From a virus (taxonomy: Duplodnaviria; Heunggongvirae; Uroviricota; Caudoviricetes), in the IMG/VR virus record IMGVR_UViG_2537562172_000002, positions 1 through 24,527 of that record: a stretch of DNA of 24,527 nucleotides. One strand, written 5' to 3'. The notes under the pieces are model-generated. The model had not been told where the DNA came from and ran no database searches. It worked only from the letters and a program-made list of their open reading frames with translations. The position numbers were made by a program, and so were the translations under genes. Positions 11,328 to 24,527 of this stretch are shown one piece after another (the stretch's first letter is position 1; every line of letters begins with the position of its first letter).

Positions 11328-12659
11328 TTACTGGATGAATGACATTTGATTAATATATTTTATCAATAACTCTCTGGGTGTAGTACTCCAAAAATTTATG
11401 TGTTCATAATCAGTATAAACATTTGTGAATTTTTTAAGTTCTTCATCACTTTTAGGGGCAAATCGCTCATTAAGAGTAATACTGTCTTTAATTATTCCGA
11501 AGAATACAATCGATATTTCAGGGATTTGCGATCTTCTCTCATAAGAATAAGGTATTTCTTTTATGTTAAGCAGGTCTGCTAAATAAGATATAGATTCAGC
11601 GGTAATTTCTTGTTTTAGTTTTTCCTTGTTACCAAAGCAATGTATGAAGGCAGCTACGACAAAGATCATATTTATTAAAGGATCACTGCTTTTGTTCTCA
11701 TCGTCGTTTAACAGTTGGAAAATGTTAAGATTGCGTGAAAATGTTTGTGTTTCACGTAATGATAAGTTGGTTCGTTGAATTAAATCACGGATAAAGTAAC
11801 CTGATAATCTATTGATTTTATTCAATAAGCTTGTTTTTTCTACAAGGTAATCCCAATATATAACAGAGGCTTTACATACGTTGTGACCATTTATCAAACA
11901 TGTATCTGGAAGCGTGATGGTATATTTTATAAACTTGTCAAGATACTTTTGTGAGTTAATGCTATAACCATAAATATGATTTATAGATGCTTTTAATTGT
12001 TCTGTGTTTGTAACTAAAATAAAAAAGACATTATTGATGTCAAAAATGTGTTTTATTGTTTCAATGACATTTGTTGAAAAACTCGGCTTACATCGGTCTA
12101 ATTCATCAATTATAATTACGATTTTTTGATTTTTTGATATGCTTTCGATGCAGGATTTAAGTGAATTTATGTTTTTCTCTGAGTCCATATGGTCTTCAAG
12201 CAAATTTTCAATAGTCCCATCTATTGCTGCATTGCTTGCTTTCTTCATCGCATCTTGGAATTCTTCGGCAACTTCACTAGCCTCCTGTCGTAAAAACCAA
12301 CCTGCACCAGCTTTTAGTACCGTTTTTAAACCAAAGCGAATTGCAGGAAGAGATCTCTTAATGAAGTGTTGTTTTTCTTCCTCAGGCAAAATGCTGGCAA
12401 TTGCAGAGGTTATGAGAAGTAATGGAGATTCTGCATGATCCCCTTTAAAGGCATCAATATAAACAACTTTAGATTCAGTTTCTTGCTCAATAATGAGATT
12501 TTTCAGTTTGATACTAAATTCTGTTTTCCCTGTTCCCCATGCGCCGTCTATTACCAGTGGTGAAATGTCTGCCTCTGGTTTTAGCAACTTGATGATATTT
12601 TCAGCGATGTTTCTTCGTTGGAACTCGTCACGTTCAGTGAAAGATAGTGTATCTAACAT
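11328..12659 (-). CDS. KAP-family P-loop NTPase (PifA-like), 443 aa
   Basis: Walker A GAWGTGKT (aa 39-46) and Walker B VIIIDELD (aa 181-188); visibly AT-rich compared with flanking phage genes; opposite orientation to Q and the late genes. Confidence 0.85.
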   Translation of the reverse strand: MLDTLSFTERDEFQRRNIAENIIKLLKPEADISPLVIDGAWGTGKTEFSIKLKNLIIEQETESKVVYIDAFKGDHAESPLLLITSAIASILPEEEKQHFIKRSLPAIRFGLKTVLKAGAGWFLRQEASEVAEEFQDAMKKASNAAIDGTIENLLEDHMDSEKNINSLKSCIESISKNQKIVIIIDELDRCKPSFSTNVIETIKHIFDINNVFFILVTNTEQLKASINHIYGYSINSQKYLDKFIKYTITLPDTCLINGHNVCKASVIYWDYLVEKTSLLNKINRLSGYFIRDLIQRTNLSLRETQTFSRNLNIFQLLNDDENKSSDPLINMIFVVAAFIHCFGNKEKLKQEITAESISYLADLLNIKEIPYSYERRSQIPEISIVFFGIIKDSITLNERFAPKSDEELKKFTNVYTDYEHINFWSTTPRELLIKYINQMSFIQ

Positions 12660-13274: not shown

Positions 13275-14327
13275 ATGAAAAATACTGTAAAAATAAACAG
13301 TGTTGATTTAATCAACGCTGATTGCCTGCATTTTATTCAGTCCCTGCCTGATGATTCCATTGACCTGATTGTTACCGATCCGCCGTACTTCAAGGTGAAA
13401 CCCAACGGCTGGGACAATCAGTGGAAAGGGGACGAAGATTACCTGAAGTGGCTGGACCACTGTCTGGCTCAGTTCTGGCGGGTGCTGAAACCTGCCGGAA
13501 GCCTTTACCTGTTCTGTGGACATCGCCTCGCATCTGATATCGAGATCATGATGCGTGAACGTTTCAACGTTCTTAACCATATTATCTGGGCGAAGCCGTC
13601 CGGACGATGGAACGGGTGTAATAAAGAAAGTCTGCGCGCATATTTTCCCGCAACAGAACGCGTTCTGTTTGCTGAACATTACCAGGGGCCATATCGCGGC
13701 AAAAGTGACGGCTATGCGGCAAAAGAAAGTCAACTCAAACAGCACATAATGGCACCGCTGATTTCGTATTTCAGGGATGCTCGTGCCGAACTGGGTATAA
13801 CGGCAAAACAGATTGCCGAAGCCACTGGTAAGAAAAACATGGTTTCCCACTGGTTTGGTGCCAGTCAGTGGCAGTTGCCGAATGAGGCTGACTACCGGAA
13901 GTTGCAGGCACTGTTTTCCCGTATAGCGGCAGAGAAGTTTCAGGAACAACAACTGGAACAACCACACCACCAGCTGGTGGCATCTTATGATTCACTGAAT
14001 CGCAAATATTCTGAATTGCTGGATGAGTTTAAAACTCTCCGGCGCTATTTCTCCGTATCAGTTTCCGTGCCTTATACCGACGTCTGGACGCATAAACCCG
14101 TTCAGTTCTACCCGGGTAAACATCCGTGTGAGAAGCCTGCGGATATGCTCCGGCAAATAATCAATGCCAGTAGTCGACCAGGCGATCTGGTTGCTGATTT
14201 TTTTATGGGATCCGGTTCCACAATAAAAGCAGCAATGGCGCTGGGGCGTCGGGCCTTAGGTGTTGAGCTTGAGTCAGAGCGGTTTAACCAGACGGTGAAA
14301 GAGATAAACGAGCTGGTGGGGAAATAA
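13275..14327 (+). CDS. DNA methyltransferase, beta-class N6-adenine/N4-cytosine type, 350 aa
   Basis: Motif IV DPPY (IVTDPPYF) near the N-terminus and motif I FFMGSGST near the C-terminus; no adjacent restriction endonuclease gene. Confidence 0.9.
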
Positions 14328-14394: not shown

Positions 14395-14610
14395 ATGAAA
14401 TCAATGGATAAGTTAACAACAGGTGTCGCCTATGGCACCTCTGCAGGCAGTGCTGGCTACTGGTTTTTACAGTTGCTCGATAAAGTCACGCCATCACAGT
14501 GGGCGGCAATAGGTGTGCTGGGTAGTCTGGTATTTGGCCTGCTGACGTACCTGACAAACCTTTATTTCAAGATTAAAGAAGATAAGCGTAAGGCTGCGAG
14601 AGGTGAATAA
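14395..14610 (+). CDS. S: Class II holin of the phage-21 S21 pinholin type, with dual-start motif MKSM
   Basis: [71 protein letters not shown] closely resembles S21 as I recall it; two transmembrane segments; RBS gaggtgggg. Confidence 0.85.
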
Positions 14611-15107
14611 TGTCGCCATCATTACGCAAGGCTGTTGCTGCTGCTATTGGTGGTGGGGCTGTTGCCATAGCGTCTGTGCTCATCACTGGTCCGAGTGGTA
14701 ACGATGGTCTGGAAGGTGTCAGTTACATACCATACAAAGATATTGTTGGCGTATGGACTGTATGTTACGGACACACTGGAAAAGACATCATGCTCGGTAA
14801 AACGTATACCGAAGCAGAATGCAAAGCTCTCCTGAATAAAGACCTTGCCACGGTCGCCAGACAAATTAACCCGTACATCAAAGTCGATATACCGGAAACA
14901 ACGCGCGGCGCTCTTTACTCGTTCGTTTACAACGTTGGTGCTGGAAATTTCAGAACATCGACGCTTCTTCGCAAAATAAACCAGGGTGATATTAAAGGCG
15001 CATGTGATCAGCTACGGCGCTGGACATACGCTGGCGGTAATCAATGGAAAGGACTGATGACTCGCCGTGAGATTGAGCGTGAAGTCTGTTTGTGGGGGAA
15101 ACAATGA
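14610..15107 (+). CDS. R: SAR endolysin (T4-lysozyme-like muramidase with N-terminal signal-arrest-release segment)
   Basis: Gly/Ala-rich N-terminal segment [20 protein letters not shown] followed by lysozyme catalytic region (E...D...CYGHTG); start overlaps holin stop (TAATG). Confidence 0.9.
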
Positions 15108-15562
15108 GCAGAGTAACCGCGATTATCTCCGCTCTGGTTATCTGCATCATCGTCTGCCTGTCATTGGCTGTTAATCATTACCGTGATAACGCAATCGCCT
15201 ACAAAGAGCAGCGCGATAACAAGGCCAGTGAACTGGAGAAGGCGAACGCCACCATCGCTGACATGCAGAAGCGTCAACGTGATGTAGCAGAACTCGACGC
15301 CAGATACACAAAGGAGCTTGCTGATGCTAACGCGACTATCGAAAGTCTACGTGCTGATGTTTCTGTTGGGCGTAAGCGCCTGCAAGTCGCCGCCACCTGT
15401 GCAAAGTCAACGACCGGAGCCAGCGGCATGGGCAATGGAGAAAGCCCAGGACTTACAGCAGATGCTGAACTCAATTATTACCGTCTCCGAAGTGGAATCG
15501 ACAAGATAACCGCGCAGGTTAACTACTTGCAGGAGTACATCAGGACGCAGTGCTTAAAATAA
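15104..15562 (+). CDS. Rz: Rz i-spanin
   Basis: N-terminal transmembrane anchor [18 protein letters not shown] then coiled-coil periplasmic domain; ATG overlaps endolysin stop (ATGA). Confidence 0.85.
15324..15509 (+). CDS. Rz1: Rz1 o-spanin lipoprotein, embedded in the +1 frame of Rz
   Basis: aaggag RBS 7 nt upstream of ATG; signal peptide with lipobox (FLLGVSAC) followed by Pro-rich sequence [13 protein letters not shown]. Confidence 0.75.
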
Positions 15563-15602
15563 TTTTAATTTCACTGAAATTTAACAAGTGACTTTCAGGA
15601 AA

Positions 15603-15631
15603 ATGCCTCGCAGATGCGGGGCATTTTTGTA
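15603..15631 (+). terminator. Rho-independent terminator after the lysis cassette
   Basis: Hairpin atgcctcgca-ga-tgcggggcat followed by ttttt. Confidence 0.6.
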
Positions 15632-15920
15632 CAGGTATTTCACCGCGCACCGCAGCGCACTCAACCACGTCGAACCAAACCCTTTGGAATGAGCCTTTGA
15701 GTAGTCAGTTAGTGCTGGTGAGCCTTGACGGGCTGATCTCCTATGCAGCAAAGGTTCATCTCAAAGTAAGGCGAACGCTATGACAAACCAAGATTCTATA
15801 GACCTATCTGATCTTCGTGGAATGGTCAGTTTTCCAGACAAAAGGTAATCACCATAGTCGTATGGCTATGAATCTTGTTGCTGCAGATAAGCATTTTGTG
15901 ATTGAAGTGGTCAAATCTCT

Positions 15921-15978
15921 CAAATGCAGTAAAATGCAGTGCGCTATAATTCAGTAACGGAGGGAGTAAGGAGAAGTC
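15921..15978 (+). promoter_or_regulatory. Candidate promoter and RBS for the 15979 gene
   Basis: Perfect -10 TATAAT at 15945-15950, preceded by the tandem motif ATGCAGT(aaa)ATGCAGT; RBS ggaggg/aaggag before the ATG; -35 is weak. Confidence 0.45.
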
Positions 15979-16599
15979 ATGAAAGATCAAGATGTTAGGT
16001 TCGCGGTGCATCATAAGCTTTTGAAAGAATCGCATTTAGATCCTGACTGCCTTGTGGTCGATGAATTTTCCATATCCCTTGGCGCCAGTAGAGCAGACAT
16101 TGCTGTAATAAATGGTGTTATACACGGGTACGAGCTCAAAAGTGAATATGACTCTTTGGAGCGTTTGCCTCTTCAAATCAAGCATTATTCTTCTGTAATG
16201 GACAAGGTTACTCTTGTCGTAGCTGAGAAACATCTTGAGGGAGCATTAAAGTTAATCCCAGGTTGGTGGGGCGTTAAAACGGTTTCTGTTGGGCCAAAAG
16301 GCGCCATTCTTATAAAGCACATGCGTGGAGAAAAGCTTAATCGAAACCATAACTCATTGATGCTCGCTCAATTGCTTTGGAAAGATGAATGTATCGACGT
16401 ACTTGAACGATGGGGCTATTCCAAAGGAATCAAAAGCAAGCCCCGATTTGAGTTATGGAATATTATTGCGGAAAATATTCCAATAGCGAATCTCAGGCTT
16501 GAAGTCAGAACAGCCTTAAAGAAACGCGTAGGCTGGAAAGTTAAGGCTTGGCAGGCTGAGTCTGCGCCAACCAATAAAGCTGTCTCACGACTAACGTAA
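15979..16599 (+). CDS. PD-(D/E)xK nuclease-fold protein, 206 aa (recalls the sce7726-type family; not verified)
   Basis: Candidate catalytic residues E29, D40 and E52-x-K54 (VVDEF ... RADIAVINGVIHGYELK); own promoter-like signals; 3' end overlaps the convergent partner gene. Confidence 0.75.
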   Translation: MKDQDVRFAVHHKLLKESHLDPDCLVVDEFSISLGASRADIAVINGVIHGYELKSEYDSLERLPLQIKHYSSVMDKVTLVVAEKHLEGALKLIPGWWGVKTVSVGPKGAILIKHMRGEKLNRNHNSLMLAQLLWKDECIDVLERWGYSKGIKSKPRFELWNIIAENIPIANLRLEVRTALKKRVGWKVKAWQAESAPTNKAVSRLT

Positions 16600-17608
16600 T
16601 ATGGTGCGTATGTGCAACTTTACGCCATTCTTTAGAGCCGCCAGATTTGTTAGCGCCTAATGATCTTTGGTAAATGTAATCATCCCCCCAACTAAATTTG
16701 GAGCCAAAGACGTGATACTCTGGCGAACTAACAAGGGTAGTACATAAGTTTTTAGTTTGGCCCCATCCATTTCCTTTAACTGCGGTACCTTTTACAAAGA
16801 TCCATGAGGTATCGTTCGAATATCTCACTGAGACATACTGAGACATGAAGCGTGGGTCTACGCTCGTAATGGTAGAGCTAGCGGTGGGATAATCACTAAA
16901 ACTTGGCGTTCTTCCATTGCTAAAATTCTGTACTACATACATCCAAAGATCGTATTCATGGCGCGGAATATGATGAACTTGATGTTGCGGTATCCCTGCC
17001 TGTGATGCAGGGTATGCGGTTGAAGATAAAATCAAGTTTCTCCACGGAGCTTGGCCTGATAATGTGTTGACCATGCTTAATGCTTGTTGTTTTAAACTAT
17101 CAGTTGCGTTTTGAATATCTCCAAAATCAATGATTACATCAATTAAACTAGGATGAATATTTAAGTGGTTAACCAGACTTGTGAATTGGTGCCATGTCTG
17201 GGGGGTGATAGATATAGCGAGCCCATTGATTAAGTTGCGTTGAACAGCATGTATATAGTTTGTTGAATATGCGGGAGAGACAACAGGGATAATTTCCTTA
17301 CCATTTACTCTAGCATCTTGGATACACATATCTAGAGGATGATGGCGGCTCGAACCATGTTTATCTAAATATTTAACATCCAGCAAAACAGGACGATTGG
17401 CTTTCCAGGATGCCGCAAGGTTAATACCGAAGTCAGATAAGTAAGAACTCAAACTCTTCTTGTAGCATTCGTTTTCATAATCCCAGTCTATGTCTGGAAT
17501 GGTAATGATCGGAGTAAAACCAGAGAGCGTAGTTTGATCTAAAAGCATCAGAGATTCATATTCAGCAGGCTTCCATTTCAGCTGTGGGTAATATTGATGT
17601 TGACTCAT
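16541..17608 (-). CDS. Uncharacterised 355-aa protein, partner of the nuclease-like gene (recalls the sce7725 / beta-protein family; not verified)
   Basis: aaggag RBS 5 nt upstream of the ATG; -10-like TATACT and a palindrome upstream; no motif I can assign by eye. Confidence 0.75.
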   Translation of the reverse strand: MSQHQYYPQLKWKPAEYESLMLLDQTTLSGFTPIITIPDIDWDYENECYKKSLSSYLSDFGINLAASWKANRPVLLDVKYLDKHGSSRHHPLDMCIQDARVNGKEIIPVVSPAYSTNYIHAVQRNLINGLAISITPQTWHQFTSLVNHLNIHPSLIDVIIDFGDIQNATDSLKQQALSMVNTLSGQAPWRNLILSSTAYPASQAGIPQHQVHHIPRHEYDLWMYVVQNFSNGRTPSFSDYPTASSTITSVDPRFMSQYVSVRYSNDTSWIFVKGTAVKGNGWGQTKNLCTTLVSSPEYHVFGSKFSWGDDYIYQRSLGANKSGGSKEWRKVAHTHHITLVVRQLYWLAQTQPAKP

Positions 17609-17651
17609 TAAAACTCCTTAAAATCTTTACTTATCCTAAGTATAGTGTTAT

Positions 17652-17664
17652 GGCGTAACGCCAA
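17652..17664. promoter_or_regulatory. Palindrome TGGCGTaACGCCA in the promoter region of the 355-aa gene
   Basis: 6-bp inverted arms around a central A, lying between candidate -35 and -10 elements of the minus-strand gene. Confidence 0.45.
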
Positions 17665-17799
17665 TTGTTTTTATACACTTGAAAACATTGGGAAAAGTTG
17701 AGCTATATCTAAATTTACAAAATTGGATGTTATAGAAATCGAGGTTTCAACTAGGCATGGAACTGCAAAATTTTTAATGCCTGCACGCGAAAGTCGTTG

Positions 17800-18020
17800 G
17801 CGGGTCCTTTCCGGCGATCCGACAGGTTACGGGGCGGCGACCTCGCGGGTTTTCGCTATTTATGAAAATTTTCCGGTTTAAGGCGTTTCCGTTCTTCTTC
17901 GTCGTAACTTAATGTTTTTATTTAAAATACCCCCTGAAAAGAAAGGAAACGACAGGTGCTGAAAACGAGCTTTTGGGCCTTTGTCGTTTCCTTTCTCTGT
18001 TTTTGGCCGTGGAATGAACA
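17800..18020 (+). other. Lambda-type cos site (cosQ/cosN/cosB); 12-nt cohesive-end sequence GGGCGGCGACCT at 17832-17843
   Basis: ...GATCCGACAGGTTACG immediately followed by GGGCGGCGACCTCGCGGGTTTTCGCTATTTATGAAAATTTTCCGG..., matching the joined right and left ends of phage lambda as I recall them. Confidence 0.85.
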
Positions 18021-18566
18021 ATGGAAGTCAACAAAAAGCAGCTGGCTGACATTTTCGGTGCGAGTATCCGTACCATTCAGAACTGGCAGGAACAGGGAAT
18101 GCCCGTTCTGCGAGGCGGTGGCAAGGGTAATGAGGTGCTTTATGACTCTGCCGCCGTCATAAAATGGTATGCCGAAAGGGATGCTGAAATTGAGAACGAA
18201 AAGCTGCGCCGGGAGGTTGAAGAACTGCGGCAGGCCAGCGAGGCAGATCTCCAGCCAGGGACTATTGAGTACGAACGCCATCGACTTACGCGTGCGCAGG
18301 CCGACGCACAGGAACTGAAGAATGCCAGAGACTCCGCTGAAGTGGTGGAAACCGCATTCTGTACTTTCGTGTTGTCGCGGATCGCAGGTGAAATTGCCAG
18401 TATTCTCGACGGGATCCCCCTGTCGGTGCAGCGGCGTTTTCCGGAACTGGAAAACCGACATGTTGATTTCCTGAAACGGGATATCATCAAAGCCATGAAC
18501 AAAGCAGCCGCGCTGGATGAACTGATACCGGGGTTGCTGAGTGAATATATCGAACAGTCAGGTTAA
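18021..18566 (+). CDS. nu1: Terminase small subunit Nu1, 181 aa
   Basis: MEVNKKQLADIFGASIRTIQNWQEQGMPVLRGGGKGNEVLYDSAAVIKWYAERDAEIENEKLRR... is near-identical to lambda Nu1 over its whole length. Confidence 0.95.
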   Translation: MEVNKKQLADIFGASIRTIQNWQEQGMPVLRGGGKGNEVLYDSAAVIKWYAERDAEIENEKLRREVEELRQASEADLQPGTIEYERHRLTRAQADAQELKNARDSAEVVETAFCTFVLSRIAGEIASILDGIPLSVQRRFPELENRHVDFLKRDIIKAMNKAAALDELIPGLLSEYIEQSG

Positions 18567-18807
18567 CAGGCTGCGGCATTTTGTCCGCGCCGGGCTTCGC
18601 TCACTGTTCAGGCCGGAGCCACAGACCGCCGTTGAATGGGCGGATGCCAATTACTATCTCCCGAAAGAATCCGCATACCAGGAAGGGCGCTGGGAAACAC
18701 TGCCCTTTCAGCGGGCCATCATGAATGCGATGGGCAGCGACTACATCCGCGAGGTGAATGTGGTGAAGTCTGCCCGTGTCGGTTATCCGACAGGAAACAC
18801 TGAATGA
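18541..18807 (+). pseudogene. A: Terminase large subunit A, truncated after codon 82
   Basis: First 82 residues (MNISNSQVNRLRHFVRAG...KSARVGY) match lambda gpA; the frame then reads PTGNTE and stops. Junction near 18786 at a TATCC microhomology. Confidence 0.85.
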
Positions 18808-19810
18808 ATGCACCCGTGCGGAGCAGTCGGCCAGCGTGGTGCTCTGGGAAATCGACCTGACAGAGGTCGGTGGAGAACGTTATTTTTTCTGTAATGAGCA
18901 GAACGAAAAAGGTGAGCCGGTCACCTGGCAGGGGCGACAGTATCAGCCGTATCCCATTCAGGGGAGTGGTTTTGAACTGAATGGCAAAGGCACCAGTACG
19001 CGCCCCACGCTGACGGTTTCTAACCTGTACGGTATCGGTGCCGGTATTGAGAACACCCCTGACGGCATGCAGAGTCAGGTGCTGCTGGCAGCAGACAGGA
19101 TTGCGATGATTAATCCTGCGAATGGCAACACAAAGCCGATGTTTGTTGGTCAGGGCGATCAGATATTCATGAATGAAGTGTTCCTGAAACGCCTGACGGC
19201 CCCCACCATTACCAGCGGCGGTAATCCTCCGGCATTTTCCCTGACATCAGACGGGAGACTGACGGCGAAAAATGCGGATATCAGTGGCAGTGTGAATGCG
19301 AACTCAGGAACGCTCAACAATGTCACGATTAACCAGAACTGTACGATTAAGGGCATGCTGGAGGCGACCCAGGTCAGAGGAGATTTCGTTAAAGCTGTAT
19401 CAAAAGCCTTCCCGAAAAAAGTCGGTACGTGGGGTAACACGGAAACACCAAACGGTACGGTTACAGTCACCATCAGCGATGATCATAACTTTGACCGCCA
19501 GATTATTATTCCGCCCATTATTTTTAACGGTATAGCGTATGACGATCCGGGGAGCGGAAATAACCCAGGAGGCACGCGATACACGGGTTATGGTTTTGAA
19601 GTTCGCAAAAACGGCGTATTAATCGCATCCAGAGAAACTAAAGGGGCCATTCCCGGTAGTTACAGTGCAGTTATTGATATGCCGAGTGGCAGGGGAAGCG
19701 TCACTCTGGAGTTTAAGATTTTCCAGAAAGGCAATCAGGGGGCAGGCAATATCACCGACTGTACGGTGATTGTGACCAAAAAAGCCGCTTCCGGCATCAG
19801 TATTCGTTGA
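18776..19810 (+). pseudogene. In-frame fusion remnant: tail protein L N-terminus (~86 aa) joined to the C-terminal receptor-binding region of a J-like host-specificity protein
   Basis: ...[35 protein letters not shown]...TLTVSNLYG matches lambda L; the remainder ([22 protein letters not shown]...DDHNFDRQI...[10 protein letters not shown]...[10 protein letters not shown]) resembles the lambda J C-terminus; no RBS at the GTG. Confidence 0.65.
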
Positions 19811-19880: not shown

Positions 19881-20480
19881 ATGCGTAAAGTTTGTGCAGC
19901 AATTTTGTCCGCAGCCATTTGTCTGGCCGTATCCGGTGCGCCTGCATGGGCGTCTGAACATCAGTCCACGCTGAGCGCGGGGTATCTTCATGCCTCGACG
20001 AACGTCCCCGGCAGTGATGATCTGAACGGGATTAACGTGAAATACCGTTATGAGTTTACGGACACACTGGGGCTGGTGACGTCATTCAGCTATGCAGGAG
20101 ACAAGAATCGCCAGCTGACCCGTTACAGCGATACCCGCTGGCATGAAGATTCCGTTCGTAACCGCTGGTTCAGCGTAATGGCGGGGCCGTCTGTGCGCGT
20201 GAATGAATGGTTCAGCGCGTATGCGATGGCGGGTGTAGCTTACAGCCGTGTGTCGACTTTCTCCGGGGATTATATCCGCGTAACTGACAATAAGGGGAAA
20301 ACGCACGATGTGCTGACCGGAAGTGATGACGGTCGCCACAGCAACACGTCTCTGGCGTGGGGGGCTGGCGTGCAGTTTAACCCGACCGAGTCCGTGGCCA
20401 TTGATGTCGCTTATGAAGGTTCCGGCAGTGGCGACTGGCGCACTGACGGTTTCATCGTGGGTGTCGGTTATAAATTCTGA
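19881..20480 (+). CDS. lom: Lom-family outer-membrane beta-barrel protein (Ail/Lom/PagC family)
   Basis: Signal peptide MRKVCAAILSAAICLAVSGAPAWA; C-terminus IDVAYEGSGSGDWRTDGFIVGVGYKF matches lambda Lom as recalled; gagagg RBS. Confidence 0.9.
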   Translation: MRKVCAAILSAAICLAVSGAPAWASEHQSTLSAGYLHASTNVPGSDDLNGINVKYRYEFTDTLGLVTSFSYAGDKNRQLTRYSDTRWHEDSVRNRWFSVMAGPSVRVNEWFSAYAMAGVAYSRVSTFSGDYIRVTDNKGKTHDVLTGSDDGRHSNTSLAWGAGVQFNPTESVAIDVAYEGSGSGDWRTDGFIVGVGYKF

Positions 20481-23943: not shown

Positions 23944-24527
23944 TGGCATTCAGAATGAGTGAACAACCACGGACCATAAAAATTTATAATCTGCTGGCCG
24001 GAACTAATGAATTTATTGGTGAAGGTGACGCATATATTCCGCCTCATACAGGTCTGCCAGCAAACAGTACCGATATTGCACCGCCAGATATTCCGGCTGG
24101 CTTTGTGGCTGTTTTCAACAGTGATGAGGCATCGTGGCATCTCGTTGAAGATCATCGGGGAAAAACCGTCTATGACGTGGCTTCCGGCGACGCGTTATTT
24201 ATTTCTGAACTTGGCTCGTTACCGGAAAATGTCACCTGGTTATCGCCGGAAGGGGAATATCAGAAGTGGAACGGCACAGCCTGGGTGAAGGATACGGAAG
24301 CAGAAAAACTGTTCCGGATCCGGGAGGCGGAAGAAACAAAAAACAACCTGATGCAGGTAGCCAGTGAGCATATTGCGCCACTTCAGGATGCTGCAGATCT
24401 GGAAATCGCAACGGAGGAAGAAAACTCGTTGCTGGAAGCCTGGAAAAAGTATCGGGTGTTGCTGAACCGTGTTAATACAACAACTGCACCTGATATTGAG
24501 TGGCCTACGAACCCTGTCAGGGAGTAA
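23943..24527 (+). CDS. tfa: Tail fibre assembly protein, 194 aa
   Basis: ATG overlaps stf stop (TAATG); position and size match lambda Tfa; the ORF ends exactly at the window end. Confidence 0.9.

Follow-up and report, generated by a model that had tools for sequence, protein, structure and literature searches.

A convergent cII-like and beta gene pair beside cos of a lambdoid prophage, a probable gop-less relative of the P4 gop-beta-cII core

The gene pair between Rz and cos

The stretch of DNA analysed here (hereafter the window) comprises 24,527 nucleotides of a virus of the class Caudoviricetes, positions 1 to 24,527 of IMG/VR record IMGVR_UViG_2537562172_000002, and holds a lambdoid prophage. 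Between its Rz gene and cos, two open reading frames (ORFs) of 206 and 355 amino acids (aa), each starting with ATG, run towards each other and have 59 bp of their 3' ends in common (Table 1). The coordinates confirm this arrangement, which had been described in an initial annotation made from the sequence alone. Judged by their full-length family matches, both ORFs are real genes; the first encodes a member of the sce7726/Phage_P4_cII family (cII-like, or cII, below) and the second a member of the Beta family (beta). We propose that the two form a cassette, probably a two-gene module that is complete in itself, moves horizontally, travels as prophage cargo and represents the gop-less core of the P4 gop-beta-cII system.

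The 206-aa protein matches the NCBIfam model sce7726_fam (NF033832) with an E value of 3e-54 and 183.7 bits, above the cut-off of 70, and is also recognised by the PADLOC model 'cll' (3e-31) and by phrog_984; the local copy of Pfam returned no match to it. Its homologues are labelled Phage_P4_cII (PF26915) in the protein database, and it is 26% identical to P4 cII itself (E 4e-19). The PGAP name is 'sce7726 family protein' in 126 Escherichia coli genomes, and the RefSeq entries for the pair read 'sce7726 family protein' and 'beta family protein'. Structure prediction from a single sequence was unusable (predicted local distance difference test, pLDDT, 37.7), whereas AlphaFold with a 50-sequence alignment gave a confident model (pLDDT 90.6; predicted template modelling score 0.84), in which an alpha-beta-beta-beta-alpha-beta core is followed by a helical domain and a disordered tail. 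Residues E29, R38, D40, E52 and K54 do not vary in either of two alignments, one with 35 diverse homologues (P4 cII among them) and one with 50, and they map to strands 1-3, as expected for PD-(D/E)xK proteins. The PD-(D/E)xK pattern first read from E29, D40, E52 and K54 is therefore upheld by invariant residues and a confident predicted fold; together they support a PD-(D/E)xK-fold protein with an intact, invariant catalytic-type motif, and the fold and motif predict a nuclease. Among structures and viral models, its nearest matches are MmcB-like 'DNA repair' proteins. Relative to the MmcB-like/SPO1766 PD-(D/E)xK proteins (PDB 3dnx), the window protein has an additional helical C-terminal domain and an obligate beta partner, and the two have no family match at the sequence level. 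A profile search of PDB sequences with the 206-aa and 355-aa proteins found nothing meaningful; matches to a TFIID bromodomain (E 0.03, no significant domain) and an isoprenoid synthase (E 0.71) were rejected.

For the 355-aa protein, the match to Pfam Beta_protein (PF14350) spans the whole sequence (7.5e-56; 190.5 bits, cut-off 27), and phrog_9159 is a further match (7e-153). The PADLOC model PD-Lambda-2_C (PDLC03984) aligns with residues 141-344 only (5.3e-32), and the match to the P4-type 'beta' model is weak (4.7e-10); identity to P4 beta is 21% (E 1e-6). Across 27 diverse homologues, Y6, E16, P33, D161, P200, D239, G323, W328 and H336 are invariant and D77, R133, R216, Y240, Y263, S306, G308 and D309 nearly so, a residue pattern compatible with an enzyme active site and a ligand-binding site alike. 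The families named for the pair in the initial annotation were sce7726 and sce7725/beta-protein. The profile searches suggested there as a check returned family matches for both proteins and bore out sce7726 and Beta_protein, but the identification of beta with sce7725 is unconfirmed, as no NCBIfam model matched the window beta (E <= 1) or eight other beta proteins, a Sorangium one among them (E <= 0.01). A Leptospira paper lists Sce7726 and Sce7725 proteins side by side, so these two do co-occur, and a literature match for 'beta family protein' proved to be the unrelated 2TM-beta effector.

Table 1. Positions of the gene pair, its upstream elements and its immediate neighbours in the window
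Feature	Position	Strand	Remarks
Lysozyme gene	14610..15107		upstream neighbour of the cassette
Rz gene	15092..15562		upstream neighbour of the cassette
Hairpin	15600..15627		3' of Rz; 13-nt arms
Conserved block upstream of the cII-like gene	15893..15950	+	near-invariant in alignment with orthologous cassettes
Shine-Dalgarno AAGGAG of the cII-like gene	15968..15973	+	5 nt before the ATG; mostly kept as purine-rich GGAG/GGGAG in 4 orthologous cassettes
sce7726/Phage_P4_cII family gene, 206 aa	15979..16599	+	predicted PD-(D/E)xK core ~1-120, helical C-terminal domain ~126-182, disordered tail 191-206
Antisense overlap, 59 bp	16541..16599		beta residues 337-355 / cII residues 188-206
Beta family gene (PF14350), 355 aa	16541..17608	-	homologue of P4 beta and PD-lambda-2C; family matches, invariant residues
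Shine-Dalgarno AAGGAG of beta	17614..17619	-	5 nt before the ATG; AAGGA invariant in 4 orthologous cassettes
TATACT	17639..17644	-	
Palindrome TGGCGTAACGCCA upstream of beta	17651..17663		absent from 4 orthologous cassettes; specific to this cassette lineage
Conserved block upstream of beta, TTAGATATAGCTCAA ... TTTTCA ... GTATAAAA	17669..17714	-	invariant columns in 5 cassettes from 5 genera
GGGCGGCGACCT	17832..17843		lambda cosN sequence
Nu1	18021..18566		past the cos side of the cassette

Pairing and overlap across bacteria and phages

At a nucleotide identity of at least 99%, 127 of 5426 complete E. coli genomes (2.3%) carry the 1.85-kb cassette, always on the chromosome. Its DNA was found in none of 72,556 plasmids, and a megablast search of 50,697 phage records matched only the cos-proximal ~100 bp, the cassette itself being absent. 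Four further E. coli lambdoid prophages were inspected, and all four carry it in the same slot between Rz and the terminase genes, next to lysis modules that differ. Its GC content of 37-44% lies below the 47-55% of its flanks. Position and composition are in keeping with the cargo slot that had been proposed for this interval.

Beyond E. coli, a scan of 185,579 species-representative genomes, one per species, returned at least 389 cII-like loci. The best 80, which were examined, span Proteobacteria, Firmicutes, Myxococcota, Bacteroidota, Acidobacteriota, Melainabacteria-like lineages and bacteria of the Candidate Phyla Radiation (CPR). A convergent beta gene accompanies cII in 77 of these 80; two of the exceptions lie at contig ends and one is solo. 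The solo gene, from Xenorhabdus koppenhoeferi (L021 5001-5567), is the only evaluable cII-like locus with no beta within ~2.8 kb downstream. A reciprocal search, anchored on beta and using a 10-sequence subset of beta proteins, found a convergent cII gene in all 18 IMG/VR viral contigs. The two genes co-occur almost obligately, as the initial annotation had expected of their families, and bacterial phyla and temperate phages alike retain both the pairing and the overlap phase.

The phase is strict. The length of the overlap is 2 mod 3 in 71 of 71 non-redundant overlapping genome loci and in 17 of 17 IMG/VR loci with an intact cII gene; in the eighteenth (L112), cII is split, and the fragment abutting beta overlaps it by 26 bp, which from the coordinates is again 2 mod 3. 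Overlaps range from 11 to 158 bp in the 77 convergent loci, with the exception of L019 and L022. The first base of an invariant Trp codon of cII and that of an invariant His codon of beta are exactly 30 nt apart in 63 of 73 non-redundant loci. The clade to which the window belongs has 69 nt instead (W186 to H336), an in-frame expansion of 39 nt. One strand of the shared DNA codes for the C-terminal helix of beta, which is conserved, and the other for the end of the conserved cII domain together with the unconserved disordered tail. By these comparisons the overlap is an ancestral, frozen feature of the pair rather than a local accident, and it offers a clean natural case for studying what keeps convergent protein-coding genes joined across such wide evolutionary spans. 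The two proteins have diverged at different rates: mean pairwise identity is 29.1% for beta and 43.7% for cII, and cII is the more conserved partner in 99.2% of 2145 pairs.

The settings of the pair vary. Neighbour clustering revealed no third gene common to all loci, only a HigB/M78 pair in a subset, and searches with P4 Gop (phmmer and tblastn) were positive for P4 alone among 95 loci that included the window. In phage Rac-SA53 the pair occupies the nin region beside hok/mok, and the authors of that genome had annotated it as 'CII phage-like' and 'beta'; in Acinetobacter prophages it adjoins a CI-type repressor; it is also found in a P4-like satellite element with a P4-type primase; and in Gordonia phages it lies between the lysis genes and the integrase, near a BrnT toxin. 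For example, in Gordonia phage DumpsterDude (MT024859.1; L096 5001-5615) the plus-strand cII-like ORF (43% identity to the window protein) is unannotated, a 71-aa ORF of the opposite strand is annotated in its place, and beta appears as 'hypothetical protein 33'. Chromosomal neighbours include serine recombinases, a KAP/AAA_16 NTPase, methyltransferases, RE_CfrBI, NucS, NERD, dCTP deaminase and dGTPase.

A solo homologue of the sce7726 nuclease core, corresponding to query residues ~14-150, occurs in ~290 lytic Herelleviridae genomes. Its carriers are Staphylococcus K-like, Bacillus SPO1-like and Lactobacillus phages, such as Staphylococcus phage Sb-1 (NC_023009.1 110666-111100) and Bacillus phage Grass (NC_022771.1), and tblastn detected a beta homologue in none of the ~290 records.

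Relation to gop-beta-cII and PD-lambda-2 and proposed function

The initial annotation knew of no characterised mechanism and missed two links to characterised systems: P4 cII and beta of the gop-beta-cII system (PMC9122126) and PD-lambda-2C (PMC9519451). In E. coli, P4 gop-beta-cII confers protection from lambda and P1, and Gop becomes toxic when beta is missing (PMC9122126). The cell-death response of the system is triggered by orf184, a coliphage accessory gene that adjoins ral (bioRxiv 10.1101/2023.04.06.535777). The P4 record lists gop (133 aa, plus strand), beta (355 aa, plus strand) and cII (264 aa, minus strand), the last of which is also named sce7726 family. Both window proteins are homologous to their P4 counterparts (beta through PF14350, cII through sce7726/PF26915), at the identities given above; beta has 355 aa in both, and in each element beta and cII converge and adjoin cos as nonessential cargo. 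The cII protein is shorter in the window (206 versus 264 aa), and the host element is a lambdoid prophage rather than the P4 satellite. The 3' ends also differ, as P4 beta and cII are separated by 27 bp containing a terminator and do not overlap. Of the parts of a P4-type locus, the window holds the beta gene and a cII gene convergent with it; gop is absent, with no minus-strand ORF of at least 40 aa between the start of beta (17608) and cos.

PD-lambda-2 consists of a HigB-like protein A, an Xre-peptidase B that is toxic and neutralised by A, and an essential third component C, which carries PF14350 and is described as 'related to a P4 phage antitoxin' (PMC9519451). Component C is thus of the Beta_protein family, and its PADLOC model matches the window beta; the genes for the HigB-like A and the Xre-M78 peptidase B are absent from the flanks of the window cassette. 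Operons of this type outside E. coli carry the same convergent, overlapping cII gene. Among ~63 non-redundant cII-beta loci, Xre-HTH/Peptidase_M78 genes (PADLOC PD-Lambda-2_B, best 1.8e-150) account for 15-16 of 126 nearest neighbours. Their place is immediately upstream of beta, and in 11 loci a HigB-like gene comes before them. All six loci retrieved by anchoring on four M78 proteins combine Peptidase_M78 and beta with a convergent cII at an overlap of 50 bp; four of them also have a called HigB_toxin gene upstream of the peptidase.

Several observations attach to these operons. cII is their fourth gene, overlapping beta by exactly 50 bp, in L097-L102 (e.g., L099 2629-5874), L051, L058, L066 and others, and this fourth gene lies outside the published three-gene description. 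The Xre/M78 peptidase (L058 4709-5941; homologues P0155-P0274) is 63-75% identical among CPR bacteria, Scalindua and Gammaproteobacteria and has more than 7000 database matches at E <= 1e-10, a degree of conservation that suggests intense horizontal transfer or strong constraint. The only PD-lambda-2-type locus of E. coli retrieved (strain AREA_C483; L103 1619-6168) encodes HigB, ImmA/IrrE and beta, and tblastn found no cII there. A DUF6119 gene converges on its beta across a 263-bp gap; as a possible cII or beta relative it was rejected (hhalign probability 0.3; no cII at the locus by tblastn). From the gene content compared here, beta and cII are the common core, Gop in P4 and HigB with M78 in the PD-lambda-2 type are add-ons upstream of beta, and at least one lineage has lost cII.

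From homology to these systems and from its genomic context, we consider a defence role for the cassette fairly probable. With less assurance, we propose beta as its phage-sensing or regulatory subunit and cII as its nuclease effector, because beta diverges faster, the pattern expected of a sensor-effector pair, and because of the genetics of P4 and PD-lambda-2. Both proteins would be made constitutively in the lysogen, where the fast-evolving beta would sense phage or act as regulator and restrain the cII nuclease. A protein or process of a superinfecting phage might then disturb beta; in the P4 system, cell death is set off by the gene that lies next to ral. The released cII would cut nucleic acid, most likely phage or host DNA, so that infection would be blocked either directly or by abortive infection. 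Most speculatively, the antisense overlap of the two mRNAs could couple their expression. A wider and decidedly tentative proposal is that convergent beta/cII constitutes an ancient autonomous immune core, of which gop-beta-cII and PD-lambda-2 would be lineage-specific elaborations; the overlap would be functional in coupling expression, and the two-gene form would protect lysogens by itself, through a mechanism not yet described.

A number of points weigh against the defence model with beta as sensor and cII as effector. Gop, the only demonstrated toxin in P4, is missing from the window; the part that cII plays in P4 defence was not dissected in the literature searched; and neither the window cassette nor any other gop-less pair has a phenotype on record. 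Since the E. coli PD-lambda-2-type locus has no cII, beta is able to work with other partners and cII is not proven as its effector. The case for the sensor and effector roles consists of evolutionary rates and analogy. Beta found no relative in the profile search of PDB sequences, and its many invariant acidic, His and Arg residues could point to an enzyme rather than a sensor. The defence-type neighbours of the pair are not called an enrichment, there being no background rate to compare. Regulation through the overlap is likewise weakened by RNAalifold, which predicted zero base pairs in it across 55 loci; a conserved RNA hairpin or bidirectional terminator was rejected on this result.

Since no conserved RNA structure was detected, any regulatory role of the overlap would have to act via convergent transcription or mRNA duplex formation. 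Convergent toxin-antitoxin (TA) and restriction-modification (R-M) gene pairs with overlapping 3' ends are known, for example among type I TA loci. The window pair shares with them convergent transcription and complementary 3' ends, and differs in that both of its transcripts encode proteins and that the overlap has no detectable conserved RNA structure.

These parallels bring other readings of the pair into view. It could be a selfish addiction module, resembling a toxin-antitoxin system, that stabilises its prophage or satellite with no part in phage defence, cII being the toxin and beta the labile antidote. Beta does neutralise a toxin in P4, the pair resides on a wide range of mobile elements, where recombinases and other TA genes (hok/mok and BrnT, for instance) are often its neighbours, and it has been kept even in the window's defective prophage. 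We nevertheless regard addiction as unlikely, given that related beta systems have measured anti-phage phenotypes, that classical type II TA genes are co-transcribed whereas the window genes lie on opposite strands with separate conserved upstream regions, and that the cassette sits in moron slots of intact temperate phages, which do not need post-segregational killing. Alternatively, the pair could work in the manner of R-M, with beta as an enzyme that either labels or alters the cell's own nucleic acid or else produces or degrades a small molecule, and a cII that attacks unmarked invader DNA. The fold of cII is that of restriction endonucleases, the genes converge under separate putative promoters in an order like that of many type II R-M pairs, and beta offers polar residues of active-site type (E16, D77, R133, D161, R216, D239, Y240, D309 and H336). 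This R-M-like reading is nonetheless quite improbable: beta matches no methyltransferase or modification family in Pfam, NCBIfam or PDB sequences, it acts as a toxin modulator or accessory factor in P4 and PD-lambda-2, and it diverges much faster than its partner, while a modification enzyme is usually no less conserved than its nuclease.

Similarly improbable, in our estimate, is a role in the phage's own life cycle, in which cII would be a DNA-processing or repair nuclease of the MmcB kind, with beta as regulator, or the pair would modulate lysogeny, neither being aimed at competing phages. Besides the structural likeness to MmcB, the solo nuclease domain of the ~290 lytic Herelleviridae speaks for such a role, as lysogen defence is no option there, and the cII mutants of P4 owe their name to a clear-plaque phenotype. 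Yet the cII gene is nonessential in P4, the full-length pair occupies variable cargo slots rather than replication or recombination modules, and it is found in only 2.3% of complete E. coli genomes; the lytic-phage homologues, having the nuclease core only and no beta, may be a separate functional branch. Finally, phage accessory regions mix defence with anti-defence genes (bioRxiv 10.1101/2023.04.06.535777), so the pair might serve as counter-defence cargo that helps its phage overcome host immunity. This we consider most improbable, because the homologous systems are defensive and the pair is common in chromosomes outside recognisable prophages, beside defence genes.

If the defensive reading of beta and cII holds and the two-gene core defends alone, Gop, the component studied as the P4 toxin, would be dispensable, and what gop-beta-cII and many PD-lambda-2-type loci have as their conserved machinery would be a nuclease and its beta partner. 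Three aspects appear to be undescribed in the literature searched: that the two-gene core is the widespread form, that it accompanies most PD-lambda-2-type operons outside E. coli, and that its antisense overlap is phase-locked across phyla. The same search turned up no study of how beta or cII works, and mentions of sce7726 and sce7725 were confined to genome-annotation lists. The rules of PADLOC and DefenseFinder call for gop or HigB/Xre-M78, and these tools would then probably miss the two-gene form.

Upstream regions and the surrounding prophage

The initial annotation had assigned each gene a strong ribosome-binding site and promoter-like signals of its own, a perfect TATAAT for the cII-like gene and TATACT with a palindrome for beta. 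The AAGGAG sequences stand at both genes. The promoter-like signals do not rise above chance, as a sigma-70-like scan of 15500-18100 gave 3 matches against 6.5 +/- 2.8 in shuffles and returned neither of the two promoters. In addition, alignment with orthologous cassettes of Edwardsiella, Klebsiella, Pantoea and Pectobacterium (~80% protein identity) showed that neither TATACT nor the palindrome is conserved in the four, and the palindrome was rejected as a conserved operator. On the plus strand, TGGCGTAACGCCA forms a weak terminator-like hairpin with a 5-bp stem, followed by the T-run ATTGTTTTTA (17651-17672); this hairpin could halt cII-sense transcripts after they have crossed all of beta in antisense.

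Other elements are conserved. The block upstream of the cII-like gene contains TGGTCA-N16-TAAAAT (15908-15935), which the sigma-70-like scan did report, the direct repeat ATGCAGT-AAA-ATGCAGT and a TATAAT (15945-15950), and the sequence further upstream is unrelated among the aligned cassettes. This block is likely a promoter/operator region that travels with the cassette. The block upstream of beta is a candidate promoter or regulatory region, in which the scan found no canonical -35/-10 pair. Because one conserved block lies upstream of each gene, separate expression of the two is plausible, by signals other than those first named. An Rfam search found no match inside the cassette.

The prophage around the cassette is defective, to judge from its remaining genes. 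In the 18541-19810 region the terminase large-subunit ORF is shortened to 88 aa, the N-terminus of GpA_ATPase only, and in ORF 18776-19810 the start of minor tail protein L (its N-terminus) runs straight into the tail-tip and C-terminal receptor-binding domains of gpJ; most head and tail genes would therefore have been deleted. Lom (19881-20480) and then a tail-fibre gene follow 3' of the L-gpJ fusion. Between the Q antiterminator and the lysis genes lie two more cargo genes, a minus-strand gene for a KAP-family P-loop NTPase (PF07693, 4.9e-71; 11328-12659), which may be another defence candidate, and a plus-strand N6/N4 DNA methyltransferase gene (13275-14327). At the left, a tRNA gene (1369-1441) adjoins a tyrosine integrase gene (1459-2622), likely marking the attachment site and the left end of the prophage, and positions 1-1254 hold an aldehyde dehydrogenase gene of the host. 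An Rfam IS009 match lies at the right edge of the window (24286-24484).

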